Assembly (NCBI GenBank): GCA_001724265.1
Contig: MEDY01000272.1
Span: forward strand, 1-41,683
Direction of reading: 5' to 3'
Source of the DNA: Rhizaria sp. SCN 62-66
Taxonomy: Eukaryota
DNA: 41,683 bases
A model generated the notes under the pieces. The model was not told the origin of the DNA and searched no databases. It saw only the letters and a program-made list of their open reading frames with translations. The stretch's first letter is position 1, and every line of letters begins with the position of its first letter. Of this stretch, positions 6,199 to 41,683 are shown piece by piece. The translations under genes were made by a program, and so were the position numbers.

Positions 6199-8761
6199 TT
6201 ACTCGGGCTTGGCAGCCTCCTCAGCGGGCTTCTCGCCGAACTCCTCCGCACCAGCCTTGGTGTGCTTGGCGGTGTTGGCGAGGAGGGAAGAGCCGGAAAC
6301 GAAGCCACCGGACTCGAGCTCCTGGATGAAGGTGTAGGTGCCCATCTCGCACGACTTGAGGTCGTTGTAGAGGTTGAACTGGCCGGGCACGATCGAGAGG
6401 TACTGGCGAGCGCACTTGAGGAGGAAACCACGGTTGTGCGAGACGAGGAGCAGGGCACCATCGTAACGGTTAGTGGCGGCGATGAGGGAATCGATGGAGG
6501 CGAGGTCGAGGAAGTTGGTGGGCTCGTCCATGATGAGAAGGTGGGGGCAGTCGAAGGTGATCTTGGCGAACATGACGCACGAGCGCTGGCCGTGGGTGAG
6601 CGACTTCATGCGGGTCTCGGCAAGAGTGCCCGTAACACCGACCTTGGCAAGGTGCTTGCGGAGGACACCGGAGTTGAGCTCGTTGGGGAACTGCATCTTA
6701 AGGTACTCCATGGGGGTGAGGGACATGTCGAGCTCAGCGGCGTGGTGCTGGGCGAAGTAGCCGATCTTGGCAGTGTCGTTGCGGGTGACCTTGCCGGAGA
6801 CGGGGGTGAGGCGACCGGTGAGGAGCTTGAGGAAGGTGGACTTGCCGGCACCGTTGGGACCCATGACACCGACACGGGTGGGGAAGGGGGAGTAGGTCAC
6901 GGTGAACGAGATGGGCGCATCGAAGATCCAGGGGAGAACGCCGGGGTTGTAGGAGAAGCGGACAGTGTCGATGAAGATGATGTCGGCACGGGGGTAAGTG
7001 GAGAGGTCGACGGTGTTCTCATCAGACGCGGAAGTGGTCTTCTTGGCAGCGCCCTTCTTGACGGGGGCAGCGACGACGGGGGCAGGGGCAACCTCACCGT
7101 TGGCGAGCTTGTTCTCACCAGCACCCTCGAGGATGAAGCCAGCGAGGGGCACGGCGGGGGGGAAGGTGAACTTACCCTGCAGACGGATCTGCTTGGCGTA
7201 GTACTCATCCTGCCAGTCCTGGTACTCCTTCTTCTGGCGGGCCAGGGGGGACGCGGAGTCGATGTTGCGGTTCTTCGAGAGGAACTTCTCGACAGTGACG
7301 GCCATGTTCTTCTCATCGTCCTCGAGCTTCTTCTCGAAGGCGCCGAAGCCCATCTGGTAGTAGACAAGGTTCTTCTTGCAGATGTCGATGACGGACGTGC
7401 ACACGCGCTCGAGCATGTCACGCTCGTGCGAGACGAGCAGGAGGGTCTTGCGGTACGCACGCATGCGGTTCTCGAGCCAGAGGACGGAGGGGAAATCGAG
7501 GTGGTTGGTGGGCTCGTCGAGGAGCAGGAGGTCGGGCTCCATGAAGAAGGCGGCGCAGAGGGCGACACGCATGCGGAGACCACCGGAGAGGGCGTTGGTG
7601 GACTCGCGCTGCTTCTCGTCGTCGAAACCGAGGACACGGAGCATCTTGGACGCACGCTCCTCAGCATCACGGTTGCCGAGCGACTCGAGGCGCTGGTCGA
7701 TCTGCTTGAGGTTGGACATGAGGTCCGCAGCCTCACCCTCGCGCGAGGGTTTGTCGGTGGGCTCGACGTCGGGGACGTTCGAGGTGGCGTTGAGCTCGTT
7801 GACGTTGGTCGGGGGGGTCTTGCCGGTGATGGCAATCAGGCGCTTGACGACGGCGACACGGTTCTGGCGCAGGGTGTAGAGGAACTCGAACGAGTTGACG
7901 ACGGTGTCGAGCACGGGCTGAGCATCCGAGGAGATCTCAATCTCGTGGCAGAGGTGGACGTGGATGTGGTTGGGGAAGCCCTTGATGCCGCCCTCGTTGG
8001 AGCCGTTGGAGATGGCGTCGAAGAGGGTGGACTTGCCGGTGCCGGGCTCACCGTGGAGGCAGATGCGCTTGCCGGACTCGAGGGTCAGGGCAGCACCCTG
8101 GAGGAGGTACTGCTGGGAGAAGGGGATGCGGAGGTCGAACGAGGGGATCTCGATGGACTTGCGGAGGTTCTGGTGGTTCTTCTCAGCCTCGATGACGGCC
8201 TGGATGTACGAGGGCCAAGTCTTGGTGATGTCGTCCCACTTGGACCAGTCGATGGTCTGGAGGAGGGCGTTCTTGGCATCCTTGGCCTTCTTACGGGACA
8301 TGTGGTTGTTGACGAGCGCCTGGGCATCGTTGGGCATCTTCTTGATGTGCTTGTCGAGAGCCTTCTTCTGATCACCCTTGGGCATCTTGCGGATCTCGGC
8401 GAAGGCAGCCTGGTTCGTGGCATCACGGAAGAGCACATCGAACTCGGTGAGCATCTCCTGAGCCTCCTCGAAGGAGGCCTCGGCCCTAAGCAAATAGAGA
8501 AACAGAACGCAAGAGAGCAAGAAAAAGAAGGTGGGGAATGTAGTAGAGGAGGAGAAGTCGTGAGAAAGGAGTTAATAAAGGCGAACAGTGCATAACAAGG
8601 CAAACAGGGGGCGCTTTCGCAAAGATGCGGAGGCGCAGTGGCGTCGGCGCGGGTGAGCCAGAGTGCATGCGAATAGCGTGGGAAACGTACTTCTTGTCCT
8701 TCTTGTCGTCCTTCTTGTCCTTCTTGTCGTCCTTCTTATCCTTCTTGTCCTTCTTGGTCAT
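6199..8761 (-). CDS. ABCF-family (GCN20/ABCF3-like) soluble double-ABC ATPase; exons 8761-8691 and 8485-6199, 785 aa
   Basis: Walker A GEPGTGKST and GPNGAGKST, LSGGLRMRVAL, LLLDEPTNHLD, LLIMDEPTNFLD, VSHER and VSHNR H-loops, no TM segments. The KKD-repeat first exon splices in frame (AA|G GCC GAG). Strong codon bias. Confidence 0.9.
8486..8690 (-). other. Spliceosomal intron of ABCF (205 nt)
   Basis: Donor GTACGTTTCC, long pyrimidine tract, acceptor TTAG; removal joins MTKKDKK.. to ..AEASFEEAQ in frame. Confidence 0.85.
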
Positions 8762-9258
8762 CTTGCCGAAGTCTAGGGGCGCGAACGGACGCAGATGGGG
8801 GGAGCAAACAGGTACCAGGGTTGTGGAGTTGGGTGAGCTGGGGATCGAGTGAACACGGACGAACGCGGTTTCACACGCGTCATAAAGCAGGCGTAGAAGC
8901 ATAAACAATAGCCAAAATATAAAACATCATGCAAAACACATCTACATCCTTGCGGGCTTTTACGGATCACTTTTTCATCTGGTTTCAATTGTTTTCCCGT
9001 TGCCCCGGTGCGCATCACCCCCCCAGTCTAAGTGCTTCCGGGCCCCTTAGCACGGACCAGCCGCCGGCCTGCGACCTTCGGCAGTGACCGTGAGTGAGAC
9101 TGCTGTTTTTTTTAGGTCCATCAGCCTGAGAGATACGATGAGAGAAATTGTGTTCTAATGCATTTGGAAGGGATAGTATTGTCTAATGAAAGTAAAATGG
9201 AACTATGTATGGGAAATAATACTGTTAAATATCACGATTGTAGTAATTTACTTGAAAG

Positions 9259-19254: not shown

Positions 19255-19597
19255 TCACTTTCCGGCCTTTTTGTCCGCCTTTTTGCCCGCCGCGGCGGCC
19301 GCCGCGGCCTCCCTGCGCCGCTCCGTCGAGTCAAGCACCGTCTCGACCCGCAGCAGCGTGTCGGCGGGCGCGCGCAGTCGCAGCGACGCCCACGCCGCGC
19401 GCGCCATCGCAGCGCGCACGCGCGCGCCCGCCGCCACGCTCACAGAGTCGTGCTTTGTCTCACGCCGCGTGGCCGCAGCCGCCGCAGCGCCAGCTGCGCT
19501 GTCGACGCTTGACCCCGCAGGCGCAGCGGTACTGGTGGCGGCCGCACCGGCAGTCTCGGTCGCAGCCGCCGTGGCAATCGCGGAATGAGTGTCATCG

Positions 19598-19641
<44 letters not shown>

Positions 19642-20682
19642 ATTGATTGCTTCGTCTTCCGCTGCAAGCTGAGCCACGACTGCCGCGTATGATGGACACA
19701 CGACCTCAACCCGCAGCTCACAAGTCGCCATCGATGGCCCTGCGCTCGCCGTGCTCGCGGTTGAGGAACTGGGGTTGGCACCACCCGTCACAGGCGTCGC
19801 GGTGGCGGCTGCACCAGAAGCAGCACCAGAGGATGCAGAATCACCGGGGGCGGCTTTGATCAGGAAGCGGTAGTGGGCGCCCCGATCGGTGGACGAGCCG
19901 GGGATCTCGACGAAACACGTCGTGGCGTCCGCGTCCGCCGCAACACTCGCGCTCGCTGCACTGGAAGTGACACTGGCAGAGGCGCTAGAAACTGTATCGG
20001 CACCGGCGCTACTGACAGGATTTGTGGCGTGCAGGAGCGGCGCAGGGGCTGCGAACGCGGCGGCGGTGGCGGGGTCGGCCACGGCGGCGGCGAGCTGCTG
20101 CACGGCGGCAACGAGCGCGCGCACGCGGGCCGGGGGCAGCTTGCGCAGCTCCTGCTGCGGCGGCGGGAGGAGCGAGGCCGAGCCGGGCAGCAGAGCGACC
20201 GAGACGCGTCGCAGGTGGTAGAGGCGGCCGGTGGACTTGTTGCGGTGCGCGAAGGGACCGCCCAGGCGCGTCGCCAGGTCGCCGTCGAAGAGGATCTGTG
20301 AGTGCGCAAAGGTCGGCAGAGATAGAAAGCGTGAATGCGCAATGGGAAGCAAGTGCAGCAGAGGCAGTGAGAACAGCAAATGAGTATACAGCGAAGTGAA
20401 ACAAGGCATATTAGAAGAAAATCGATATGAATCAGACGCGTATACACGGGTGATACATGACTAAAGTGGTGATAGTTTCAGGAAACGTACCTGGTCTCCG
20501 CGGAACTCTGCGTTCTTGGTGAGCGAGTAGACGGGCTCCTCCTTAACGTGGCGCAGCGCGTCCTCCAGCTCGTCGCTCGTGTCGCACGCGTAGTCAATCC
20601 ACGCGGTGTCGCTGTCGCCCGGCAGCCGGTACTGCCATTGCACCCACGCAGCAGCGGGCGCCTTCGCGAACGCGTTGCCCAT
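19255..20682 (-). CDS. WWE-domain protein with putative N-myristoylation site; exons 20682-20491 and 20295-19255, 410 aa
   Basis: Spliced N-terminus MGNAFAK..WVQWQY..AWIDYACDTSDELEDAL..Q|ILFD..HRNKSTGRLYHLRRV fits the WWE pattern (W..W.xY..S..[IL]E..N..TG...[VL]RR). The rest is Ala-rich and unrecognised. Confidence 0.7.
20296..20490 (-). other. Spliceosomal intron of the WWE gene (195 nt)
   Basis: CAG|GTACGTTTCC donor, CTCACAG acceptor; removal joins the two halves of the WWE domain. Confidence 0.8.
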
Positions 20683-21177
20683 GCGCTGCGGGGACACCGA
20701 AGGGAGTGGAAAGTGGGAGCCGCGAAAGGAGGGAGATTCGAATTGGGGAACATGTCTCGTGAGAGATCGAAATGTGCGGTTAAGATATAATTTAACAATG
20801 ATGTATTAAACTCGCGCATTTACTTGTTGTGTGAGCGTTAGCAAGATCTGACGAGAGACTGGTGAGATCACGGAAGTTTTTAGTTGCCTCAACATTGCCG
20901 TCAATCTTTGTGCACGCATAATCAATTTTTGTTCACTGTGAGTAACGAACAATCACACTGGCTGAAACACGCTGGATCTTCACATAATGAATCTGTATTG
21001 TGTTGATTTTAGAATATTATACATAAAGCACATCGTAGTCTGCATTTCACTTTTCGCCAGGTCTCGCCCCCGGCCCTTCCACTTCAGCATCGCATCTCGG
21101 CCTCACACAGCAGTGTGATCGCAGTGCCTGCACTGACAGCGCCCTTACAGCGCTATTGCAGTGCCTTAGCGGCGCGC

Positions 21178-23604: not shown

Positions 23605-24876
23605 CCGCACTGTCGGTTACAAGAAGAGTTGGAGGAACAAAAGCAAGGGTGAGTCAGGGAATCAAGGCGAGGGTCTGGAACATCAATGCAACAACAAATC
23701 TTGCGCCGAGACAGGGATAAACGCGTCTTCGCGAGACAAAAAAAATGATAAATTTGTACAAAGAAACGTCTGCATATCTAATCTGTGGTTTGCAGAGCAT
23801 TATATGGTGCGTGCACAGCTCCTATGACCCTTTGTTGAAGACCGATGATGATGAGTCGGCGGCGATCTGTTTTTTTCGGCCCCCACCACAAAACCAGTCT
23901 TCGATGTTTCGATCATATAAACGCATCATACTCCGCTCATGGCGGGCTATTGGCTGTACTTTTGCTGTTACATTCTTATTTCAAGTATTTTCCTAAAACG
24001 GTGCGCCTGTATGCTCTGCATATGTCGTCACTTATCACTGCTATTGCTCCGAGAGCCCCGGGAGTACTCAGCGAGTGCAGCAAGAGCAAGAGTTGAGGAG
24101 GGCAACTGCCGACAGGCTTGATCTGCTCGACTCCGGTCTTGCCTGGATGGCCCTCAGTGACTATTGGCGGTGCCGCTGCTTATGCTAACCCTGTTGCTGG
24201 ACAGCTCCTGCTGTTGCTGCTGCTGCTGCTGTTGCTGCTGTTGCTGCGGCTGATGCTCTTGATGGCGCTGTGCCGCCGCCGCTGCTGCTACCGCTGCCGT
24301 TGTGCCTTCCGTTGTTGATGTTGACAATGATGCTGGCACCGCTGCTCACGAGGCAAGTCAAGATTGGACAGCGTAGCTTCACAGTATACTACGTAGCAGT
24401 TAGCTCAACTGCTGCGGAATATTAAGTTTCATAATTCGATGGATATGCAAAGGACCTCAGTCTTTTATGATAAATACCGTTTGGTATGATGAATAAATTG
24501 CGTAGTTGTATACTATAGTAGAGTTTGAGCTCCACATCTATCAGCTCTGCCCGCGAGATCGTGTTTGTACGTAAACACCACAAGCACACTTCAAGCTGAG
24601 TCATCTAATAGATCATGCCCCACAGTCTCACAAACACCGTAAAACGTAAATGTGGCGACGTATTTAAACGTTAACGTGTATTTTATATCTATTGCTTAAA
24701 TTGCATTTCTTACGCTCTCGTTCACAACTCACTGACGCTTCTTTCCTTCGTCTCTCCGCTCACCCCCAACGCTTCGACCTCCCTCGCCTTTCCCCAGCAC
24801 TCTCACCGCATCAAATTGCAGAACTGAACGCGACTGCTAGCTATTTAATAGAAGTCTTGCGCAAATACCCCCCACA

Positions 24877-25848
24877 ATGAGCAGTCATCTCCAATCCGGG
24901 TACGTGTCAACAATCAGCGGCACTCCTCAGTTCCCGCATCCACTTCTTCCCTCTCTCACACCTCCATGTTCATGTTTGCCTTGTGTCCGCCCTTCTTCGT
25001 TTTGTCCCTTTCTGTACAGGTCATGGGAGGACTTATCGACGTCGTTTCGCTCCTTGGAGGGCCGCGTGCACTCGCAACTGAGCGAATTCCACCACTTCGC
25101 CCAGGCCGCCCAACGCGCCGCTTCAGGCTCCCTCATGTCCTCCCCTTCCACTCAGACTGCGTCCGGGGCCAGCAACAGCGGTGCGGTGACGGCTGCGCTC
25201 GCCGCCGCCTCGGCCGCGACGGCCGGGTTGACTGCGGACGCCACGGACCTCCCGCGGTGGGAGTCCCAGCTCGCCACCCGCGACAACGACATCGGTGCTC
25301 TCTTAGCGCAAGCAAACTCGCTCCTCTCCGCCATGGGCACGCTCACCGCGCAATCGGCCGCCGACGCGGGCGCCCCGGCCTCAGGCGCCGCAGGGTAGCG
25401 GCAGCGGCAGTTTCTCTCCCGTTTCCGCGGCGTTGCCGAAGAGCTCGCGCTTGATCACCGCAAAACGCGCGACTCGGCGCGCGCCGCCGTGGCGCGCATG
25501 CGGCTCTTCGCCGATTACGCCGAGTCCGACGCCGAGATAGGCGGCGTGGCGTCCGGGGCCGGCGCGGACTCGGCGCTGCTGGCCAAGGAGCGCGCGTCGG
25601 TGCAGTCCGCGCTGGCGGGGCTCGGGGACGCTATCGGGGCCGCCGAGTCGTCGTACGCGTCGTTGGTTCGCCAGCGCGGCGTGTTCGCGGCCATCCGCGG
25701 CAAGCTGGGGGAGCTCGCGGAGAAGCTGCCCGCGGTCAACGGCGTGATTGAGAGGATTCGCAGGCATGAGCAGAGGGATACGCTGGTGCTGGCTGTTGTG
25801 ATTGCGCTGTGTATGTTTATTTCGTTCGTGTATATCATGAACAAGTGA
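24877..25848 (+). CDS. GOS1: Golgi Qb-SNARE Gos1/GOSR1; exons 24877-24899 and 25020-25848; contains an in-frame TAG at 25396-25398
   Basis: N-terminal SWEDLSTSFRSLEGRVHSQLSEF and C-terminal KERASV..QRGVFAAIRGKL..LPAVNGVIERIRRHEQRDTLVLAVVIALCMFISFVY match the GOSR1 pattern (WEDLR..LE.. and QRG..PAVN.LI.RI...RD + tail anchor). Both halves are in one frame. Confidence 0.9.
24900..25019 (+). other. Spliceosomal intron of Gos1 (120 nt, stop-free)
   Basis: Donor GTACGT, pyrimidine-rich body, TGTACAG acceptor; removal places SWEDL near the N-terminus as in the family. Confidence 0.85.
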
Positions 25849-27407
25849 ATAAGCTGCTACAATGTATATCATAAACAAGTGGATTGGCTTCTGTGACTGA
25901 GTGGTTTTTTATAGAATATCACATGAAGAAGTGAGATAGGAAATGAGGCTCTGCATGTCTGATAGTCTATATTGACTTTTGTGTGAGATGTGGTCTGTGT
26001 CAGGTTATCATCGCTCTTTTGCGTGTTTAAGAATGTTCTAAAATGGCCGCCTGTGTACGTTACTTAGATTATAGAGGCCACCACGATGCCGTGGAGTTTG
26101 TTGCGATCCTGTGCAACGGCAAGGGCACGCAGGAGAACCCCGTCATCGAGTGATCTGCCTGATGGTGGGGTTGCTCCACCGAAGCTAAGTATAGGTCGTT
26201 CGTGAATGTCACGAATACGCTTTAGCTCTACGGGACTAACGCGCTCGCGTGCCGACCCGCATCCCTTCGTCGCGTGATTCATGAAATCGCACATCATGGA
26301 TACGTATGCACGTAGCGCATTCGAAACTGCATAGGGTCTCGGTTTACTTGCACGCCATTTTAATGAGCTGGCCAATACACAATCACCACTTGGTTTTTCA
26401 CTGCTGTCCAACACTAACACATGATTCAGTTTTCTTGGTAAGCCCATTCACTGGCCCGACGACAAAACACATTTCGAAATACCGGATGAAGTTCTTTATG
26501 ACAGGTTCTCTTTTCTCTCTCATTTCCAGTTTCCTGCGATCGATAAAATTCAAGGGCGAAAGAGAAAAACTGTATGCATGAGTGACTCAAATAACGACTA
26601 GTGGTGACATTGGGACAACAAGGTTTTCTGCAAGATAACGGGACCCTTTTAGTATAAAAGCAATGTATTTAAGAATGTTAATTGTGAATATATAATCTGA
26701 CAAAATTATTTACGTCAGTAAAGACAATACAGTTTCACTTTTCAAGATTATCTGTCTTCGACTTTACTGCCACGCACACGAAAAATGGTTGTTTTGTTTA
26801 TTGGTGTTTGTTTTAACATTTGCGTTTGTTTGAATAGTAATATATAAAATAGTTTAATAGTTTGCTGTTTTTGTGCGGCGCGCGCGCGCATCTCAGCGGC
26901 TGTGTTCCGGGGGCGGTGCTTAAGCTATTGTAACACTGTCAAAACCATGGTTTTAACATACATGTTTTGATGCGACACGTATGATAAAATGTCTGATATG
27001 AATTGAGCCCCACCCCCGACTGAGCAATCGCACACGCGCCTCTTAGACCTCTTTCTAAGACAACACTTCCATTCCTTCTCAGCTCTCTGCCTGCCTCCAC
27101 AGCCTCTCTCTGTGCATTCTGCGGCGTCAAATTGACACTGCTGAACTGCTGCTGACGGCCTGCGATGCGTACTATGCATTGCATTCAGCAGCATTGCACT
27201 GTGTCGTGCACTGCGCGTAACCACGGGACACACATACGGCCGTGAGATCTGACCGCAGCGCCACGCCGCACAGCGCAAAACATCAGGCAACACCAATGAC
27301 ACAGACAACAGGATACGCCGCCAAAGAACCAGAGGACGATCTGCCTCCTTTTTGTTCTCTTCCCTTCCACAGCCCGCCTAGTCCACACAGTGCGTTTAGA
27401 GCGGCGC

Positions 27408-28041
27408 TTACTGGCTGGTCGTACGGCGGTTGCGGAAGCGCTCGGCGCGACGGCGCTTCTTCAGCTTGTGCTTGTTCATCTTGGACTTGCGCTTGCGGAG
27501 CACCGACGTGAACGACATCTCGTCAAACGCGTCCGCGGCGTCGCCATCAATGGAGAGCACGGGGGAGCCCGCAGCAAGGGCGGCCTCGACCGCGCCGTCC
27601 ACGGCAGCGGCGTCAACCGACACGCTCATAGCGTTCACGGCCTCGGCGGCGCTGTCAAGCTTGCCATCAAGCTCGAGCTCAAAGGCGGGGAGGCAGGTCT
27701 CGACGGCGAGCAGTGCGCCGGCGTAGGGCACGAGGGTCTTGGATGCGCGCTCGGCGGCGACGGCGGCCTGGGCGTCGTGCATGGCGACGGCGTCGGCGAC
27801 GGCGTCGAGGAGAGCGTTGAACTCGCGGTTAGACGGCACGGCGGAGGAGACGGCGACGAGGGACGAGTGCAGGGGCGAGTGCTGGTGCTGAGAGGAGAAG
27901 GTGTAGAGAGGGGAGAGCTGCGGCATGCGGTGGAAGAGCGCAGGGGCAGCGGGGGACACGGCCGGCAGCGACGACGAAGCTACAAGGCAGCGGGAAACAA
28001 AGTCGGAACGAGGAAGACAACATGCACGTCAAGAAACAAAG

Positions 28042-28291: not shown

Positions 28292-29178
28292 GGCGCTCTA
28301 CACTCAGTCAGCACGGCGCGCGAGCGAAAGAAGAAAGAAAAATAGGGAGCAAGCAGGGGGCAAAGTGGGAAGGTGAGTGAGTGAGAGAGGTCTGGAGGCA
28401 GTTGACACGCCTGTCATGATGGCCGCGATATGTAGCGTAAAAACTGCACGGGCGACGCAGGGATATTAAGATCTAAAAATATAAGAGAGCTTCTATAGCA
28501 TGTTATCACCCTTTCGCTATTTGTCGGAGTTAGGATCCCCTTTTCATGCGACTCAATCTGCCCCGCAGACCGACTGTGTGAGAGTGTGCTCTCGCGGTGG
28601 TCGCGAGAATTGCGGGCATTTTTCGGCCCACCGACGGTCGGCCTGCCGGTCACAGGCAGACTCGTTCGCGCCCTGCCTCGGGACCAACTCAAGGTTGCTA
28701 ACGGGCGTCTTTAGGTCTGTTCCAATAGGACTAAGACACAGGAGCTATATTATTTGCGCAAAATTTGTTTTAATTTTATTGCTGCACGCGAGGATTGCTG
28801 CTGATATCTGTCCGTGTGATGCTGATTCTTCACTGATGAAAGACCGTGCCGAAGCAGTCGCTGCGCTACCTCATTCATCTCATGCAGCAGCATATAACAG
28901 CGCTGGATAGGGATAAGCTCCGCTCTATCTGAACTATTCGTTTCGAAAGTTTTCTTCCGCACTGCGATCGCGCTAGTTCGGACTTATTATTGCCTCTATT
29001 ATCCCATTCTTCGCTCACCCATGTCACTCCACCCTGGTTTTTCTTCGTGCCCTTCCGCTGTCCGGTCCCCTCAGAACCTTTCTTTCTCACTTCTTCTCTG
29101 AACCTCTCTGCAGCACACACTACACGTTTACACACACGTAAGCCCCCCGCGCGGCTCTCGTAACAAACCCTCCGCCCC

Positions 29179-32100
29179 ATGTCGTCGACGACGGTGACTT
29201 CAACCTCGTCGGTGGCCAACGACGAAGAGCTCCTTCTCGACACCGAGATGCTCGCTGCCGAGGGCGTCTCGCTCGACGCATCTTCCGCCGCCTTCACGCC
29301 CTACCCGTCCGCCGCAGACATGGCCCGTGCTCGCGCTAATTCAGGCCCTGCGAAACTCATGGCCGACGGCGACGACGCTGACGCAGCAGTCGGCGGTGAC
29401 ATCAGCGATGACGCCGCCGCCCCCGCTGCTGCCCCGCGCAAGGGGGGCGCTGCGAAGACCTCCGCGACTGCGGCCCCTGCCGAGCGCCCGACGGCCGCGA
29501 ACCTGATTGCGCGTCTGGACGCGATGCTGCAGCGATCTGCGCAGTTCCGCGACATCGCCATCGCATCCGCCCTCAAAGATAGCAAGGACAAGGCCGCCGC
29601 GGAGAGCAAGACGAAGCGCGGCGCCAGCGCCAAGAAGGGCGGCGAGCGCGTGCGCATGACCGAGGATGAGGAAGACAAGGCCATGCTCGCGGAGGCCGAG
29701 GCCGAGGCCGCTGGCGCCGCGTCGGCCTCCGTTGGCCGTATCTTAGTTCAACCGAGCATTATCACCGCGACGATGCGTCCCTATCAGCTCGAGGCGCTCA
29801 ACTGGCTGATGCGGCTGCACGACTCGCAGCTCAACGGTATCCTGGCCGACGAAATGGGGCTCGGCAAGACGCTCGAGACCATTTCCCTGCTCGCGTATCT
29901 CCGCGAGTTCCGCGGCATCAACGGCCGTCACATGATCATCGTTCCCAAGAGTACCCTGACCAACTGGACGCGCGAGGTGCGCAAGTGGTGCCCTGCTTTT
30001 TCCGTGCTGGCCTTCCATGGCCCGCGCGAGGACCGCGAGGCGCTTATCCCGCAGCTCGCGGGCGCTGACGTTATTGTCACCACGTACGAGGTCTGCATCA
30101 TCGAGCGCGCCGCGCTGCGTGCTCTGGCGCTCGAGTACATCATCATCGACGAAGCGCACCGTATCAAGAACGAAAACAGCAAGCTCGCGCTTGTGGTGCG
30201 CCAGTTTAAGTCCGCGCACCGTCTGTTGATCACTGGCACGCCGCTGCAGAACAACCTGCACGAGCTCTGGTCGCTGCTCAACTTCCTCAAGCCCGACCTA
30301 TTCTCGTCGCACGCCGACTTCGAGGAGTTCTTCAACCTGTCCGCGGCCAACTCGGACGTCGAGTCGGACGCCATGGTCAAGTCGCTGCACCGCGTGCTCC
30401 GCCCTTTCCTCCTCCGCCGCCTCAAGTCCGAGGTCGCGACGTCGCTGCCGCCCAAGGAGGAGGTGCATTTGCACGTCGGTCTGTCTGCGATGCAGCGCGA
30501 GTACTATACGCGTATTCTGGCGCGTGACATCGACGCGCTCAACGCCAACGCGGCCAACTCGAGCAAAACGCAGCTGCAAAACATTATGATGCAGCTCCGC
30601 AAGGTGTGCAACCACCCGTACTTGTTTGAGGGCGCCGAGCCCGGTCCGCCCTTCATCGAGGGCGAGCACCTCGTTGAGAACTGCGGTAAGATGATCCTGC
30701 TGGATAAGCTGCTCGCGAAGCTTAAACGCGACGGCTCGCGTGTGCTGATCTTCTCGCAGATGACCCGTATGCTCGATATCCTCGAAGACTACTGCAACTA
30801 CCGCGACCTAACTTATTGCCGCATCGACGGATCGACCAAGCAGACGGACCGTGACGACGCTATGGACGCGTTCAACGCGCCAGACTCGGATAAGTTTGTG
30901 TTCCTGCTGTCAACTCACGCCGGTGGCCTAGGTATTAACCTCCAGACCGCCGATACTGTCATTCTCTACGATTCTGACTGGAACCCCCAGATGGACCTTC
31001 AGGTACGCTTAGCTTCAACCTTACATATCTCACTTGTATCACTATCTATATTTACTAACTTCAATTATTATATGAATTAATCGCAGTTATACCTTAGAAT
31101 TACACTTTAGTTTGATTGATTCACGTATCACCAATATGTCTTGCAATTTGTTTCTTAATCTTAGGCGCAAGACCGCGCGCACCGTATCGGTCAGAAGAAG
31201 CAGGTCCGCGTCTTCCGTTTCGTCACCCAGCCCTCCGTAGAGGAGAAGATCGTTGCCCGCGCGACCCGCAAGCTTGCCCTCGACGCACTCATCATCCAGA
31301 AGGGCCGTCTCGCGGAGCAGGAGTCTAAGGGCGCGTCGGCCGCTGAGCTGCAGAACATGGTGCGTTTCGGCGCCGCGTTCATCTTCTCGTCCAAGGACGC
31401 TACTATCACGGACGACGACATCGACACGATCCTCTCCCGCGGCAAGCAGCAGACTGAGGAGCAGGCCGCCAAGCTCAAAGCCACGTCGTCAGACTCCCTC
31501 CTCAACTTCTCTTTCGTCGCCAACGAGGAAGACGGGTTCAAGGTGCAGACCTTCGAGGGCGTCGACTACGCTGCCGCCGCCGCCGCCAACGCCGCCGACT
31601 CCTCTGGCCTTGGCCTCGGCGGCGGCGCTCTGCCGTTCATCGCGCCGCCCCAACGCGAGCGCAAGACCGGCGGCTACGACGTCAACGAGTACTACCGCAC
31701 CGCGCTCAACCCTAACGCCGGTGAAACCAAGGCGCGCGCCGGTCCGCGCGAGTGGCGCCCCGCGCAGCGCCACGACTTCCAGTTCTTCGCCGTCGAGCGG
31801 CTCAACGCACTCGAGAAGCGCCACTTCGTTGCCGACCAGGCGTACAAGGCGGCGCGGATCGAGCGGCTGCGCGCCGTCAAGGAACGCCGCAAGGCCGAGC
31901 TCGACGCCGAGCGCGACGCGCGCAGGGCCAAGGCGCAGGCTGAGCGCGCTGCGGGGCGCGAGGTCGATGACGACGATGACGACGACGAGGATGAGGACGA
32001 AAGTGACATCGACCTCGATGAGGAGGACGAGGACGCTCAGCTGCCCTCTCCCAACGCTGCGTCCTCTAGCGCCGCCAGCGCCGGGAGCGCGTCGAGCTCT

Positions 32101-33417
32101 GCTGCGAGCCCGAGTGCGGCGGGTGGCAAGAAGCGTGCCCTGGAGGCCGAGACTGAGGGCGACGCAGCAGCCGCGACCCAGCCCAAGCCCGCGGCCCCGG
32201 CGGCCCCCACCTCGTCCCATAGTAAGAACGCGACCCGTGCCGCGCTGGGCTCGGTGACGCTGACCGCTGAGGACGAGGAGGAGCTGCGCCGTAACGCCGG
32301 CTGCCTCACTGCAGAGGAAGAGCAAGAGATGCGCACTCTGCAGGCCGAGGGCTTCCCCGACTGGCGCAAGGCCGATACGCAGCACTTCGTCACTGCGTGC
32401 GCGACGTTCGGCCGCCGCGACGTCGCGCGCATCGCCGCCGCCGTCGAGGGCAAGGACCCGGCCGACGTGCGGCGCTATCACGCCGTCTTCTGGCGCCGTG
32501 TCGGCGAGCTCAAGGACGCTGACAGGCTTGTCAAACAGGTCGAGCGCGGTGAGGCGATTGTGCAGCGCCGCAAGGCCATTGAGAAACTGCTTGATCTTAA
32601 GGTCGCGCGGTCGGGCGACCCGGTCACGGCCCTGAAGCTCGACTACCCGAGCAAGCAGACGCTCTACACGGCCGAGGAGGACCGCTTCCTGGTGCTGGCG
32701 ATGCGCCACCAGGGCTTCGGCAACTGGGATGCGATCCGCCGCGACGTGCTTTTGGCACCGCAGCTGCGGTTTGACTGGTTCCTTAAGTCACGGACGACGT
32801 GGGAGCTGGCCAAGCGGTGCGAATTCCTGCTCAAACTGCTCGAGAAGGAGGTCGAGAAGCCCGCCGTCGCGGCCGTCAGCGCCGCGGCCGCCGCTGCCAC
32901 TGCTGGGCCCGGCTCCGCTTCTGCTGCTAAGGGCCGCGGCAACGCCCAGACTGACAGTAAGGTCGACGGCAAGGCTGAGGCGAAGCCGCGCGCTCGTCCT
33001 GCTAAGAAGGACAAGGACGGCGCTGCTCCTGCTGCCGAGAAGAAGGAGAAGGCCTCCACCCCCGCCAAGAAGGACACGACCAAGGACGCTAAGAGCGCCA
33101 AGGATGGCAAGGACAGCAAGACGGCTAAGTCGGCGACGCCGACCAAGAGCAAGACCGCTGCCAAGAAGGGCGGCAAGGCGTCAGCCGAGGCCGAGGACGA
33201 TGAGGGCGAGAGCAGCGGCGTTGAGGTCGTTAGCGACAGCGAGTCCGGCAGCGGCAGCGGCAGCGGCAGCGAGGACGACGAGAGTGGCAGTGATGCTGAC
33301 GAAGATGCCAAGACTCCTGCCAAGGGCGGCCGGGGCAAGGCGGCCTCGCCCGCCGCGGCAGCCAAGGGCGGCAAGAAGGAGAGCAGTCCTGCCGCCAAGA
33401 AGACTTCACGCAAGTAA
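29179..33417 (+). CDS. ISWI: ISWI/SMARCA5-type chromatin-remodelling ATPase; exons 29179-31002 and 31165-33417, 1358 aa
   Basis: GILADEMGLGKT, IIDEAHRIKN, TGTPLQNNLHELW, QLRKVCNHPYLF, FSQMTRMLDILED, DSDWNPQMDLQ|AQDRAHRIGQKKQV; HAND (QRERK, DFQFF), SANT (EGFPDW..FGR..VEGK) and SLIDE (YTAEEDRFL..RFDWFLKSRT) all present. Confidence 0.97.
31003..31164 (+). other. Spliceosomal intron of ISWI (162 nt, AT-rich)
   Basis: CAG|GTACGC donor, TACTAAC at 31053-31059, TTAG acceptor; removal restores motif VI DLQAQDRAHRIGQ exactly. Confidence 0.95.
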
Positions 33418-34114: not shown

Positions 34115-37100
34115 TTACGCGACGCTGCCGCCGCGCTCGTGGATGGCGCCGATACACTCGCGGCACACAATGACCTCGCCGACCGGAAGACCCTGTCCGT
34201 AGAGCTGCTGCTGTTGCTTGCTGCCCTCGCCCCAGACGGGCGTCGCATCGGCCGCGGACGTGGAGCCGTCATAGACACCGCGCGCGCGTGGCCCGCGCAG
34301 AGGCGTCATGCCCGCGCGCACGGCGGTGTCGACGAGCGAGCGGTACATCTCGCGCGGCACGCGGCCGATATCGCGCGGCGTGTTAAGCAGCGGGCGCGCG
34401 CACACGAGACACGCGATGCAGGCTTCGTGCAGCGTCATCATGCCGTTGGCGATGGGCGACAGCGGCGACGGCGACGGCGGGACAGACACGCCGGGGCTCG
34501 CGCCGGGCGTAGCCGCGGGGGTCGCGCGCGCCGAGTTAGCCGTCGACGCCGCCGCCGACGCTGAAGTCTTGATCTGCCGCGCCGTTTGACCGACGCCGAT
34601 GGGCTCGCCGCAGGCCGCGCAGGGCACGGCGGTGGCGGCGTCGTAGTGCGCGCGGCACACCGCGCGGCACAGCCCACTCGCGGCGTCGGGTAGTGCGTAC
34701 ACGGCGTCGGCCGCGGGTGAGCTCGCGACGGGGGACAGCGACACGCGGCACACAGCGCAGCGCAGGCACTCAGCGTGGAAGCTGCCGCATTCGGACGTCA
34801 TGACGGATGACTGCGACGTGTAGATGGGCAGCGAACAGCGCACGCAGGAGCCCGTGACGTGGCCATGCGGTGGCGGCATGTGCGTGGACGTGCGCTGCGG
34901 CGCCGGACGCGAGGGCGCAGCCTTCTTAGGACCCGCCCCGGCCACACTCGCAGCATCCGCAGCGGTGGTGGCGGCGGCAGAGGGCGAGGGAATCCCGGCG
35001 GCCACCGAGGCGGCGGGGCCGTCCGGGATACTCGTGCCGAACGACGCCGACGCGGGCGCGCCCCCGAGCCCCGCAGCGTCGGGGACCGAGCCGTACCCCT
35101 CGGGGCCACCGTGCGCGCAGCCTTCGCTGCTGCTGTGGGTGAGCCCCAGTCGACCGAGCCCCGCCCCGGAGGACGGCGACGGCGGCATCAGCAGCCCAGC
35201 CCCCGGCCCCGGCGCGGGCGAGTTTGGGAACACGGACACGCGCGGCACGCCCTTGGGCGTCGGCACCAGCGGCGCGGGCGCGGGCGGCATCGGCGCCAGC
35301 GCGGACGAGGCGGCCGACAGCGGCGCGGGCATAAACGCCGGCGGCTGCGCCAGGTCCGCCGCAGCCGCAGGCGTCGTCGGCGTGCGCGGCGCCGGAGACG
35401 GCGTGCCTGCCGGGCTCAGCACCGACAACGGACGCGGCGGCGGCGGCAGCTGCAGCGAGCCGCCGCCCATCGCCGCGAACGCCGACGCGCGCTGCTGCAC
35501 GTACGACCCCGGCGGCGGCGGCATCGCGCCGGCGCTGGCGTCGCTGAGGCTGTTGTTGCCGCTGCCGTCGGGCGAGACCGCGACGACGGGACCTGCGACG
35601 GCGGACAGCGGGGGCGCCTCGTGCAGCGTCGGCAGCGGCGCCGTGGGCGCGAACGACAGCCGACCGTGTCCGGAGACGCTGGGGCGGGTGCTCACGGGGC
35701 TCTCACTGTTGCTGGGCCGCGCCTTGGGCGACGGCGCGGCGGGCGGGGTGCCGTGGCCGTGGCCGTGGCCGTGGCTGTATCCGTGGCCGTGTGCGGGGAC
35801 CGAGATTCTGCGGTGCAGGGCGTCGCGGGCGAGCGCGGGCGCGACTGTCATGGGCGTCACATCGTCGCCCTCGGAATCGTTGCCTGACTCTGTGGCCGGC
35901 ACCGCGGCCGCGGCTGTGGGTCCCACTGAGAGCGAGCCCACCGCCGAGGGCAGCTGCTTCGACACACGGGGCGTGAACGACACGCGCCGGCTGTCGGGCT
36001 CGCCGGAGTCACCAGCGGCCGTCGCAGCGCCGGACTCGCCCCCCGCGAAGGCCGCGTGCGCGCACTTGCTGTGCATGTTGGGGTGCGTCTTGGACGCCGG
36101 CGCCAGCGCGAGCGGCTCTTCGCACGCCGCGCATCTCGCAGACGCCGGCGCGACAAGGCTGCCGCGCACGGCGCCGCTGGGCGACAGCGCGGCCGACGCG
36201 GCAGCAGACGGCGCGGCAAAGGCGCTGAACGAGCGGCCGCGGTCTGCGTTGGCGTGGCGCGCGCAGTAGAACGCACCTGGTGCAGCGACGCGCGAGAAGA
36301 CGGGCGCGATTGCGGGCCCGTACGCAGCGCCACAGAGCGCGCACACGAGGCACGCGGCGTGGAACGAGCCCACGGTCGGCAAGTCGAGCGCGGAGTCGTC
36401 GTCGGGCGCGATCGCGAGGCTGCAGCGCGCGCACGTGTCGTCGTCGACCGCCGTGGGCGCTCTGGTAGTGTTGCCGGCGAGCGCATGCGAGAGCGCGGTC
36501 TCCGCGGCGGCCCGGTCTGCGGCGAACGCGGCCGCCGTATCTGCGTCGTGGTGCGCGCTGCAGAGGAACACGCTCTCGCCCTCAATCGTCGGGTGGTTTG
36601 CCACGAAGAACGGCATCGGCGGCGCCGCGGCGGTAGACAGCTCGGCCTGGACTTCGGCTTCGAAGCGCGCCGCCGCGGCGGCCGTGACTGGCGCGTAACC
36701 CATGGCGTAGAGCTCGAGCCCCGAGGGCGCGCGGTGGCAGCAGAAGCAGCGCGCGCACTCGGGGTGCGCGGGCGTGCCTGCGTCGTCGCAGTAGAGCGGG
36801 TCCGACACTTGCTCGCCACACACGCAGCACAGATCCGCAGCGGCGGCCACGGCGGCGTCGGCCGCGCAGTACGGCCGCCCGTCGATGGGGAAGTGATCCT
36901 CATCCGGTGACAGTGCGCGGCCGCACGCACCGGCGCACGTGAAACACTCGGCGTGCCAGAAGGCGCCCATAGCGTAGAGCGCCTTGCCGGACAGCGCGGT
37001 GCCACAGCCGGAGCAGTGGCGCGCGAATTGCATGTCGGCCGCGCCGGCGAGCGTGCTGAGACGCGTGATGGTCGACAAAGACGGCAGCGCGGGGGCTTCG

Positions 37101-39340
37101 GCGTCGAATCCGTTCGTTGCGTCAGAGCCTGCCGCAGCGGCGGAGGCGGCGGCGGCGGCGGTATTGGCGCCGTGCGCACCGCCGACGACGTTGACGGTGA
37201 TGCCGTCGTCGTCAGCCTCGCCCTCCGCCCCCGCCTTCGTCGCCCCCGCCGTGGTGGTGGATGCAGCCGCGTCGGTCTCAGTTGCGGCGGCGGCGGTGCG
37301 GGATGCCGCCGGTGACGTGCCGGCGGACGCCGCGGTGGGCGTCGGCGGCAGCGCGAGCGCGCAGGGCCCCGCCGCCGTGGGGGCCGCTGCGACGCGGTGG
37401 TCCTCCACACTGCGGCTGCCGCTGGTGGCTGCGCCAAGCGTCGTGGTGCTCGAGAGGCGGCGCAGACTGAACGTCATGTCTGTGGGACTGCGCGCAGGCC
37501 AGAACACCGCGCCCGCGCCCGCGCTTGTGGACGTATTCGCACCGGAGCCTGCAGCAGCGCCGACGCCGGTGAGATTGACGGTGGCGTCGGCGTCCGAGTC
37601 GCCCTCGCTGGGCAACACCACCGACATCGATGCTACGGCGGCAACGGTCTTAAGCCCGGCCGAGGGCAGAATCTGCGGCAGCGGCGGCGGCGGCGGCACA
37701 GACTCGGACCCCGAGCGCGCGATGCTGCTGTTCTCACGGCTCGCCACAGGGCTGGTCGCGGCAAGGTCGCTCTCGGCGTCCGCGGCATCGGCAGCCGCCG
37801 CGGCGGCAGCGGCGGCGGCAGCGGCGGCATTGGCGTCAAAGGTGATGACACTCGCGCGCTTGGGCTTCGCGGCGGCGGGCGTGGCGGGCAGCGCGCCCTC
37901 GGGGCCATGCGCACCGTCACGTGTTCCGTTGTTGGTGGGCGACGGCGCGGGCGAGTGCATGGGCAGCGCGGGCAGCGCAATGGCAACGCTGCGGCGCATC
38001 GCCCCCGTCGCGCGGTCCGCCTCGGTGCCCGTAGGCGCCGCCAGCGCTGCCATCGCAGCCGCCGCCGATGATGCCGACGACGCCGCTGACCCCGACGACG
38101 CGGATGAGTACGAATGGGGCAAGTGCGCCGTGGAGCCGCGCTTGAACATCGCCCCCGCGCGCGCCTTGGCGTTGCCGGCACCCGCACCGGCCGTGGCGAG
38201 ACTGAAGCTGGCCGCGCCGCGCTCTCCACCGGCGCCGCCCTGCTGCTGGTGCCACGAACGCAGCTTGGACAGCGCGAGCTTGCTGCTGTCGACGTCAAAG
38301 TCGTCGTCGTCGCCAACACCAGCACCGGCGTAGCCAGTGCTCGACTCGTCGTCGCCGCCGACCCAGCGTGCGCCGCCGCTGTCTGCGTGGCTGTCGCTCT
38401 CGTCCTCGTCCTCGGCCTCGCTGTCGCTCGCGTAGGCCAAAGCACGTGCGCGCGCGCGCGCGCGGCCAGAGCCGCTGCCTCCACGACCGCTGCCGCCGCG
38501 CCCGCTGCCGCCGCGGCCGGAACCGCCGTGGACTGACAGCGCGTCGCGCGCGGCGTTGTCATCGCCGTCAACAAGCGCGTTCGGACTCTGCTCAGGCTGC
38601 TGCTGTTGTTGCTGCTGCTGTTGCTTGGCCTGGAGCTCCTGCAGGCGTGACTCATGCATCGAGGCCAGGAAGCGGCCGTCGTCACTCAGCGTGTCGTCGT
38701 CGTTGTCGGCGCCCGCGTCGTCGTCGTAGTCGTAATCATCCGAGTCCGAGTCGAACGTCGTCGCCGTCGCCGCCGCGGCCGCGCCCGCCGCCGCGGCGTC
38801 GTCTTGCGCAGGCGGGGGCGGCGGCGGCGGCGGGAGCCCTCCGAGCGCGGACATGGCCGACAGCGTTGACAGCGTTGACAGCGTCGAGATGGTGGAGCCC
38901 GTCCGCATCGGCCGCGGCGGCGGCGGCGGCGGCGGCGGCACAGAGCTCGCCGTGCTGCCGCGCTGCCCCTGCAGCGCCTTCTGCGCAGCGGTGGCGGGAG
39001 AGCCCGGCGTCACAAGAGACTCCCCGTCTTCCCCCGGCAGCAGTGGCGGCGGCGGCGGGATCGATTCGGCCACACTGCCCCGGAAGCCGCCGCCGCCAGA
39101 GACGGCCGCGGCGGCGGCAGCGGCGGCCTCCGCAACGCCCGCGTACACGGACATGCGCGCCGCACGCAGCGCCGCCGCCGAAGCGCCACCACCACCAATA
39201 CTGGCGCTGGCGCTGGCGGCAAAGGGCGCGGGCTGCGTGCTGGAGCTGACGGTGCTGAACCGCGGCGGCGGCGGCGGCGGCACCGCGCCCCCCAGCGGCT
39301 GTACTTGCGTCGAGGTGGACGAGGCGGCCGAGAACGACGA

Positions 39341-39375
<35 letters not shown>

Positions 39376-41683
39376 TGCGCGCCCCCAGCAGCGGCGTCGT
39401 CACGCATACCATCCCGCTGCCCCCGCGAGCGTTACCCGCGGCACCGGCACCGGCGCCGGCGGCCACGGGCGCGGGGCCGTCGTCGCAGTCCGAGGTCGCC
39501 GGTGAGATGTCATCGCCGACACTGTAGACCCCGGCCGCGGCGGCGACCTGCCAGGGCTGGCGACGCTGCAGGAACATCTGCCTCCGCGCGAGGCGCAGGT
39601 CACGCGTCCCGCTGGCCACGGTGCCGAGCGCGGAGCCTCTCGGCGTTTGATGCGACACGGGCGTATACACCGGCTCCTCGGAGTCGGACAACGTCGGCGG
39701 AGACATCTCTCCCGCTTCCTCTTCGCGCGCCGTGTACTCCTGCACCGCGCCCGCGCCGGCAGCGGCGGCACCGGTGGCCTGGCGGTCGAACGCCGTCTCC
39801 ACGGCCGCGATTGCGCGGTCGTTGTGCAGCGCAAGCGGCGACATATACGCCGAGTCGGCGCGCGGGTACGCGCGGTCGCAGCGTCCGGAGCGCAGCACGA
39901 TCTCGAGTGTCGCCGTGCGGTGAAATGTCTTTCTACCGCCGCCGCCGCCGCCACCGCCGAAGCCAACGCCGGCCTTGAGCCCTCCGCCCGCGGTCGCGGC
40001 CGCCGAGATGGCCGCGGCCGCGCGGGCAGCACCGACGCCCTTGCGCGCGCGCGCCTCAGGCATCGCGAACGGCGCCGCGCCACCCTTGGCCCCCGCGGCC
40101 CCGCCGGCGCCAAGCCCGCCCGCGGCGCCGTGGCCACCGAGGGCGAGACCGTGGCCGTGGGTGAAGGACGCTAGAGTCGCCGATCGCCCGCGCCCGCCTG
40201 CGGCGTCTGCAAGGGTCAGAGCGGCGCCGGTGCCGTGGTTGTGGCTGAGGCCGGCGCCCGCGAGGCCGCGAGGGACAGCGCCGTTGTGCGCGCCGGTGAC
40301 GGCGGCGGCGGAGCTGTTGTTGGTGTGCGCGGTAGCGTTGGCCACGATCATGCGCGACCGCTGCAGCGAGCCGTGGCGCGCAAGTCGGCCGAGCCCGCCC
40401 ACGCCGCCCGCGTTGCCGTCGGCGCCCGTGCCCGCGCTCGTGGAGAAGTTGAGGGGACGCGGCGGGCGCACGCCGGGCGAGGCGCCAGCGACCGGGGGCA
40501 ACTGCTGTTGTTGCTGTTGTTGCTGTAGATACGGCAAGCACACGCGCTCGAGCAGCAGACGCGCGTGTTTGCGGCGCGCCGCCGTAATGGTTTCGTTGGG
40601 GAACGATCCCAGCCAGCGGCCGAACATGGTCTCGACGAACCGGTCAGCGTCGAGCGGGGCGGCGGCGAACTCCTTGAGATTGGCGATGAGCTCACTGTGG
40701 TTCCCCGCGGCGAGGATACCCTTGGCGCCCAAGTGCAGCAGAGAGAGCGACGCACGGAACATCACCTTGGGCCCCTCGTAGATGAGGCAGTCCCAGACGC
40801 GCAGCAGCGCTTGCTGCGGGAGCGCGGTGGCGAGCACGGAGCTGTACCAGCGCCACGTCAGCGGGCCCAGCGGCACGGCCAGCGCGTCGAGCCGGCGCGC
40901 GACGCGGGGCAGCTTCGCCTCGCAGAGCTCCGCCAGCACGGCCTGGTCGACACGCAGCCCCGCCTCGTCTGACGAATGGTAATACAGCCGCCCGGGGGTT
41001 TGCGGGCCGAAACGTTCGCGCTGCGACTCGTCAACGGGCACGGCGCAGATGTCTTCGAGCATGTACACAAGCGCCCAGAACGCCGGCTCCTCGCCCAGCA
41101 TGAGCAGGATGACCGCCGCAAAGAAGCCCAGCGCGCGGTAGTCGCTCACCGCGGGCACACGAACCGCGAGCGCTCGCAGTACATTGCGCAGAGGCTCAAC
41201 ACCCTTGTCGTGCTGCGCGGCGGCCGCGAAGTCAAGCAGGGCGTCGATGGCCGTCGTGGCCTTCTGGTAGTGGTCACCGCGCACCGTCTCGAGCAGTCCG
41301 CGGTAATACTGCGGTCCGTAGGCGAGTTGCCGCTCTTCGATGCGCGCGAACTTGCCCCACACAGCGGGCCGCATCTCGGGCGGAATACCAGACCGGATGA
41401 GGGTCTTCATGCGCGCGGAGCGGACGAGTCCGCACTTGCGCACGTACGCCTGCCACGCGCGGCGCAGCCCGGCGTCGCTGTCCGCCGCGCTCGCAGCAGC
41501 AGCAGCAGCAGCGGCGGCGGCGGCGGCAGCTGGAAGGGAGGGCGCGGTGACCGTGGTGGGGCCACGCGGACGGCCACCGGGGGCAGCGGCGCCCGCGGCG
41601 GCTCCGGCGGCGGCGGCGGGGCCGTTGGCAGGCGCGGGGGCGAACAGCGCGGCCGCGGCGCCGGTGCCGGCGGCGGCGGCGGT
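34115..41683 (-). CDS. Very large (>2522 aa, 5'-truncated) protein: TBC/RabGAP-fold domain, polyproline region, about five complete and one partial LIM zinc-finger domains
   Basis: Frame is open to the window end. TBC features IRSGIPPEMRPAVW, LRNVLRA, EEPAFWALV, LLRVWDCLIYEGPKVMFRASLSLL (about 40570-41420). LIM patterns CxxC..HxxCxxCxxC..CxxH/D/C at about 37015-36860, 36830-36550, 36434-36255, 34845-34640 and 34622-34155. Confidence 0.9.

Follow-up and report, generated by a model that had tools for sequence, protein, structure and literature searches.

The window, by which we mean the whole 41,683-nt stretch of DNA analysed here, carries a gene for the Golgi SNARE Gos1 whose reading frame is interrupted by a single TAG. 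This TAG is real, recurs in every assembly examined, is not removed by splicing, is the sole one in the exons of the window and is absent from the closest relative, and the half of the gene that lies downstream of it is undamaged. With moderate confidence, we regard it as a genuine premature stop read under the standard code, brought about by a young, lineage-specific nonsense substitution in an uncultured, near-clonal wastewater protist. A C>T nonsense allele had figured in the first-pass annotation of the window as one alternative ranked level with others; that equal ranking was dropped, and the allele became our leading reading because the TAG proved to be real, unspliced, unconserved and single.

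The Gos1 gene and its nearest relative

The coding sequence of Gos1, read from the sequence, comprises 849 nt or 283 codons on two exons (Table 1). The spliced product of the two exons reads ...SG SWEDL, which fits the N-terminal WE.L motif of the family alignment, and the WE.L..AR.LE start of the protein aligns with the family. When the sequence was read again, the position of the TAG and its rank as codon 134 of 283 were as first annotated. Across the site the sequence runs GCA GGG TAG CGG CAG CGG CAG TTT, in agreement with the earlier remark that the TAG stands in register with a CAG-CGG repeat. Gln had been suggested from that register as the meaning of the codon. In the family alignment, however, the TAG falls in a linker of variable sequence that precedes the third N-terminal helix, and the residue is not inferable from such a position. 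The segment 3' of the TAG is coding-like (GC3 0.85; coding score 0.39 per codon), and its 149 codons have kept the frame, the residues conserved in the family, the anchor and a normal terminator. Gos1 thus has one stop as its single lesion, and no further disabling change was found in it.

Table 1. Positions of the parts of Gos1 and of the introns of the window, which are AT-rich and about 90-200 nt long
Feature	Position	Strand	Remarks
Gos1 exon 1	24877-24899	+	23 nt (ATG 24877-24879; 7 2/3 codons): MSSHLQS, then bases 1 and 2 of a Gly codon
Gos1 intron	24900-25019	+	120 nt, GTACGTG...TGTACAG
Gos1 exon 2, whole	25020-25848	+	Stop included
Exon 2 5' of the TAG	25020-25395	+	N-terminal (Habc-like) region; aligns with P0001 and 16 more distant family members
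In-frame TAG	25396-25398	+	Codon 134; +4 base C (CGG); opposite GCG (Ala) in the relative
Exon 2 3' of the TAG	25399-25845	+	149 codons: third N-terminal helix (RQRQFLSRFR...), SNARE motif, membrane anchor
SNARE motif	about 25579-25764	+	
Membrane anchor	about 25783-25839	+	
First ATG 3' of the TAG	25498-25500	+	Start of the 116-aa ORF reported by gene callers (P0003)
Terminal TGA of Gos1	25846-25848	+	Relative stops one codon further on, likewise TGA
Intron	8487-8690	-	
Intron	20340-20490	-	
Intron (ISWI gene)	about 31060-31164	+	

The assignment to the family was examined on both sides of the stop. In the piece 3' of the TAG, residues 61-122 match the Pfam domain V-SNARE_C (PF12352; E 2.8e-7, 31.2 bits with the cutoff at 27.1), and the N-terminal 125 aa, the piece before the TAG, had no match in the local Pfam library. 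A single C-terminal anchor is predicted from the hydrophobic tail LVLAVVIALCMFISFVYIM-NK, read from the translation, which aligns with the tails of 17 family members. The Gln that is conserved in at least 70% of the alignment rows (SL..QR) is retained in the window (LVRQRG), in a column that may be the central (zero) layer of the SNARE motif. The closest relative, P0001 (281 aa; 57% identity), aligns without gaps on both sides of the TAG and in one frame. Together with the PF12352 match, this bears out the original claim of Gos1-type homology on both flanks of the stop. P0001 itself maps to Atlas clusters annotated as 'Golgi SNAP receptor complex member 1' (scores 0.95, 0.94 and 0.93), and in the Atlas clusters nearest to it by features PF27017, a GOSR1-type N-terminal domain, occurs in 93% and 80% of the members. 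When P0001 was searched exhaustively against 1.84 billion representatives, the two pieces from the window's species came first and the next protein was 37% identical to P0001. Judged by these comparisons, Gos1 is a reasonable identity for a divergent protein. It has in common with Gos1/GOSR1 (GS28), a Golgi Qb-SNARE, the C-terminal V-SNARE_C domain, the tail anchor and the N-terminal W-E-x-L, and it differs by being very divergent, by an Ala/Ser/Gly-rich insert and by the in-frame TAG.

The Gos1 gene of the relative lies on the metagenomic locus L001; it is intron-less and thus has no intron at the site of the 120-nt intron of the window. At the position of the TAG, L001 reads TCA GCG CGG CAG CGG CAG TTT where the window reads GGG TAG CGG CAG CGG CAG TTT, and the Ala encoded by this GCG is the residue found in all 5 members of its protein cluster. 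A COX24/mS38-like gene (PF08213) stands tail to tail with Gos1 on both contigs (27408-28028 on the minus strand of the window, 2020-2690 on the minus strand of L001), so the local gene order is conserved between the two species.

Recurrence of the TAG and intron structure

Runs containing the stretch came from bioreactor, wastewater and related metagenomes of 8 studies, and four of these runs entered a comparison of independently assembled contigs over positions 24420-28040, which represented three studies from 2016-2025 besides the source. The TAG is covered by contigs of X2 (25130-26910), of X4, a separate study of 2025 (24420-25487), and of X5, a third study (25300-25456). All of these contigs had 0 differing letters, and no variant was listed at 25396. 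X2 and X3 are on file under different studies and years, yet their contigs agree in length, depth and differences, so that the two are probably a single data set deposited twice and were counted as one. The X5 run is labelled cDNA but was rated 'probably DNA', and the Gos1 intron lies outside its coverage. Contig depth was about 5-7 in every run compared, and contigs drop minor variants. The predicted proteins break at the same place: P0004 (110 aa) terminates with ...ASGAAG exactly at the TAG, and P0003 (116 aa), which starts from the ATG at 25498, occurs on 6 contigs (JGI/IMG, Logan and ENA). A near-length search of the protein collection returned only such halves and no whole Gos1 protein of the window's species. 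The TAG is genuine and recurrent in every assembly examined.

Removal of the TAG by splicing, a possibility raised in the first-pass annotation, is ruled out, since the relative is colinear and gap-free across the site, with GCG at the position of the stop, and no intron signals are present there; GTACGT is absent from exon 2 of Gos1. The sole GT at the site, GTAGCG, would as a donor define introns of just 10 or 16 nt, and use of the TAG as a splice acceptor would remove residues conserved in the family. Introns are few in the window. Three are located close to the 5' ends of their genes; the fourth interrupts the helicase C-terminal domain of an ISWI gene. They begin with GTACGT in Gos1, in ABCF and in the gene at 19255-20680, and with GTACGC in the ISWI gene, where the start was deduced from the ORF translation; their acceptors are CAG or TAG, followed by G. 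There are no RNA runs on record among those that contain the stretch, and two poly(A) runs of X4's study held next to none of its sequence words.

A probable nonsense substitution and the competing explanations

The simplest route to the TAG would be a C>T change in a CAG that continued the repeat run (CAG-CGG-CAG-CGG-CAG). We infer that translation terminates at the TAG, that the change is recent and that the cell copes with little anchored SNARE or finds another source of it. Most ribosomes would stop at this point, setting free a soluble N-terminal fragment of 133 residues, and the anchored SNARE would be made only through trace near-cognate readthrough at the weak UAG-C. Alternatively, it could come from rare reinitiation at the ATG 100 nt 3' of the TAG, or from a second copy or allele. 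Since the linker that holds the TAG varies within the family, inserting any residue there, even rarely, would suffice for a working protein. The contigs show 0 differences over pieces of roughly 1-2 kb, suggesting that the population is near-clonal, and in such a population a deleterious allele can be present throughout with no selection for it. The absence of the stop from a relative with 57% identity fits a young mutation and not an old recoding signal. The intact downstream half also fits recency; it would equally fit readthrough or reassignment, which is why our confidence stays moderate.

Several observations stand against a nonsense substitution. There is no second lesion, so that Gos1, if it is dead, must have died very recently; the gene ends of the window are free of TAG; and the C at +4 is the weakest context for termination. 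Leakage alone would give very little SNARE, yet GOS1 is widely retained across eukaryotes. Compared with strain-specific nonsense alleles and young unitary pseudogenes, the gene is similar in its single premature stop, in the lack of conservation of that stop in the relative and in the near-clonal population, and it is unlike them in that a second lesion is lacking and that an intact allele occurs in none of the assemblies examined. If the TAG is a plain nonsense allele, it matters little: it would show that premature stops in metagenome-assembled protist genes can be real and can recur worldwide within near-clonal lineages, and a single in-frame stop should not count as a change of code.

An alternative explanation is that the TAG copy is one of two, either a heterozygous allele in a diploid or a diverged duplicate, and that it decays while an intact GOS1 does the work. 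In X2/X3 and X4, contigs that are 90-95% alike match positions 25707-25832 and 26231-26408. The diverged contig differs from 25707-25832 at 11 sites in 126 nt and covers just the last ~148 nt of Gos1; the other diverged match has an indel, with 47 letters skipped and 81 between. Depths of the diverged contigs were 6.9 and 5.05 against 5.68 for the main contig in one data set, and 5.11 and 7.39 against 6.2 in the other. The 10 differences listed for the diverged contig comprise 6 synonymous changes and 4 replacements, two of which hit residues that are conserved between the window and the relative. These contigs may stem from a sister strain, from a diverged haplotype or from a second copy, and they are a possible buffer against the mutation. 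Their depths lie near that of the main contig in both data sets, and a CAG allele could be hidden given that contigs drop minor variants. However, a whole or near-identical second Gos1 protein of the species was found in neither length class, the diverged contig reaches only the very end of the gene and carries its two replacements at conserved residues, and a co-occurring sister strain could also produce equal depth. We therefore consider a decaying copy beside a working one unlikely.

Alternatively, UAG may no longer terminate translation in this organism, either because it has been reassigned or because a suppressor tRNA reads it as an unassigned codon. This would be an early phase, with the codon still very rare and Gos1 made whole. 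Such a reading bears on how stops are used in the window. A codon-usage score trained on long ORFs gave 13 gene ends, 7 with TAA, 6 with TGA and 0 with TAG, exactly the tally of the first-pass annotation, and the sole in-frame TAG that it had reported in about 10,000 codons came out as 1 in the 10,032 codons of the 13 coding segments. Two coding-like ORFs that end in TAG (8486-8926 and 20461-20805, both on the minus strand) were rejected as TAG-terminated genes, as they are first exons running into introns. When TAG was read as sense, 56 ORFs of at least 150 codons contained it, 5 of them in the frame of a gene model. Inspection of these five left an exonic TAG only in Gos1, those of the other four being intronic or upstream of the coding part; the remaining 51 of the 56 were judged off-frame or antisense as a group and not singly. 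Among the stop triplets of 10,370 intergenic bases, the fraction of TAG is 0.214. With a share of 0.2, the probability of finding no TAG among 13 gene ends is 0.055, and it becomes 0.035 for 15 when the two gene ends of the relative (one TGA, one TAA) are added. The absence of TAG gene ends is thus a suggestive hint toward a non-terminating UAG but not significant.

The frequency of the codon within genes points the other way. Against one TAG, the rare sense codons TAT, TTG, CAA and GAA occur 33, 40, 52 and 61 times, respectively, in the same 13 genes. Of the two known lineages with a UAG-only nuclear code described by Panek et al. 2017, the rhizarian exLh (UAG=Leu) has 384 in-frame UAG in 71 genes and Iotanema spirale (UAG=Gln) has 204 in 126 genes, located at conserved Leu or Gln columns (PMC5304391). 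Measured against the 1.6-5.4 per gene that these published figures give, in-frame TAG is 20-70 times rarer per gene in the window (PMC5304391). The window shares with these two codes an in-frame UAG in a conserved gene, a sample without UAG terminators and possibly a rhizarian host, whereas it has 1 such codon in 13 genes, at a variable position, and exLh and Iotanema have many at conserved ones. Reassignment, one of the two inferences favoured in the first-pass annotation, has gained no positive support. One TAG per 10,032 codons at a variable column makes an established UAG sense codon in the window's organism very unlikely, and this leaves only a very early or very inefficient stage. To our knowledge, such an early, low-frequency stage of UAG-only reassignment has not been caught in any nuclear genome.

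Beyond the TAG-free gene ends (none of the 13 in the window, none of the 2 in the relative), a UAG that does not terminate would account for a Gos1 that is otherwise perfectly intact and for the TAG being the sole allele seen in three studies besides the source. A tree of the ISWI protein (see below) groups the organism with two named Rhizaria, and Rhizaria contain the one known nuclear UAG-to-Leu code (PMC5304391). Against this, the tree is a quick single-gene one built with 34 of the 120 listed matches, in which the window is deviant in amino-acid make-up, and ARAGORN found no tRNA with a CUA anticodon within the 41.7-kb window. Taken with the scarcity of in-frame TAG and a stop-codon tally short of significance, these points make a non-terminating UAG distinctly unlikely. 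We are more doubtful still of the specific form in which the organism no longer terminates with UAG and the GOS1 TAG is among the first sense uses of a codon being captured. If UAG were indeed non-terminating, the organism would afford a rare view of the early phase in which a stop codon is captured, in a lineage close to the one nuclear UAG-to-Leu code known so far.

Efficient, site-specific readthrough would yield both a soluble N-terminal fragment and the full membrane-anchored SNARE, and programmed readthrough had been the other favoured inference. The nucleotide after the stop is consistent with it: of the 13 true stops in the window, 10 have a purine at +4 and 1 has C, the base that follows the internal TAG. 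In mammalian cells, UAG-C is the leakiest UAG tetranucleotide context, with a UAG leak of 0.028-0.203% that is higher with C at +4, as reported by Cridge et al. 2018 (PMC5829715). Leakage in this measured range would give mere traces of full-length SNARE from the context alone. The window shares the UAG-C tetranucleotide with those mammalian leaky stops, but its TAG has no stimulatory motif or structure and sits in the middle of the domain architecture and not at a C-terminal extension. The CARYYA-type motif is a known readthrough motif. By direct reading, no motif of this type follows the TAG. Positions 25396-25495 fold no better than shuffled sequences (z 0.30; 123 of 200 shuffles fold as well), and no Rfam families were found in the window. 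The coding sequence 3' of the TAG is intact, as readthrough would lead one to expect, and directly after the stop the codons for RQRQFL.RFR (25399-25428 against 609-638 of L001) are identical in 8 of the 9 residues shared, the rare TTT and CGT among them, compared to 68 of 152 identical synonymous codons between the window's Gos1 and the relative overall. However, this run lost its significance over about 145 windows: about 2.6 such runs are expected and 6 occurred, falling into 2 clusters of which one belongs to the anchor. The relative shares the run although its gene has no stop there. With GCG at this position in the relative, the TAG lacks the conservation of a recoding signal, and programmed readthrough is, like a non-terminating UAG, distinctly improbable here. 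Least credible is an artefact, be it a sequencing error, the consensus error that the first-pass annotation had kept in play or a correction at the RNA level such as UAG editing, and we hold it to be highly improbable. Depth is low in all runs compared, but the same letter stands in independent contigs of three other studies from 2016-2025 with 0 differences, which excludes a consensus error, and gene calls on 6 contigs from three sources concur.

Host organism and neighbouring features

The Atlas taxon for the window is 'Eukaryota' only. Further indication of the host came from the ISWI-type SNF2 ATPase at 29164-33417 on the plus strand, a gene with one intron between ...QMDLQ and AQDRAHRIGQ, whose first ORF was reported by metagenome gene callers as a 633-aa protein on 6 contigs. 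Among the 120 matches listed for this protein, the named ones were about 50-63% identical. The single-gene tree was built from 34 of these 120, namely named group representatives and some unnamed sequences, with 86 left out. It placed the window in an 8-row clade with Plasmodiophora and Amorphochlora (SH-aLRT 99), next to oomycetes, and flagged the amino-acid make-up of the window as deviant. On this tree, an affinity of the organism to Rhizaria is a lead and not a placement. Against prokaryote genomes (161 related stretches among 280, with 80 retained), the ISWI protein gave only SNF2 matches of at most 50% identity, in records titled bacterial MAGs. A 44-nt pattern around the TAG had 0 matches in genome contigs and 0 in viral contigs, and a scan of metagenomes with 158 pattern matches led to 1 locus, that of the relative (L001).

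Other features of the window were also recorded. The ORF at 34118-41683 on the minus strand spans at least 2,522 codons and runs off the window end, with a GC content of 74% and an abundance of Ala and Gly. Inside it and antisense to it, ARAGORN called a tRNA-Asp (GTC) at 38530-38600 on the plus strand, the single tRNA-like match in the window; Rfam gave no tRNA at 38530-38600 at the gathering threshold, so the ARAGORN call is probably spurious. A (GCT)n/(CAG)n run of about 31 units, assigned to no gene, occupies 24204-24297 between a ubiquilin-like gene and Gos1, 580 nt ahead of the Gos1 start, and reads as poly-Gln on the minus strand.
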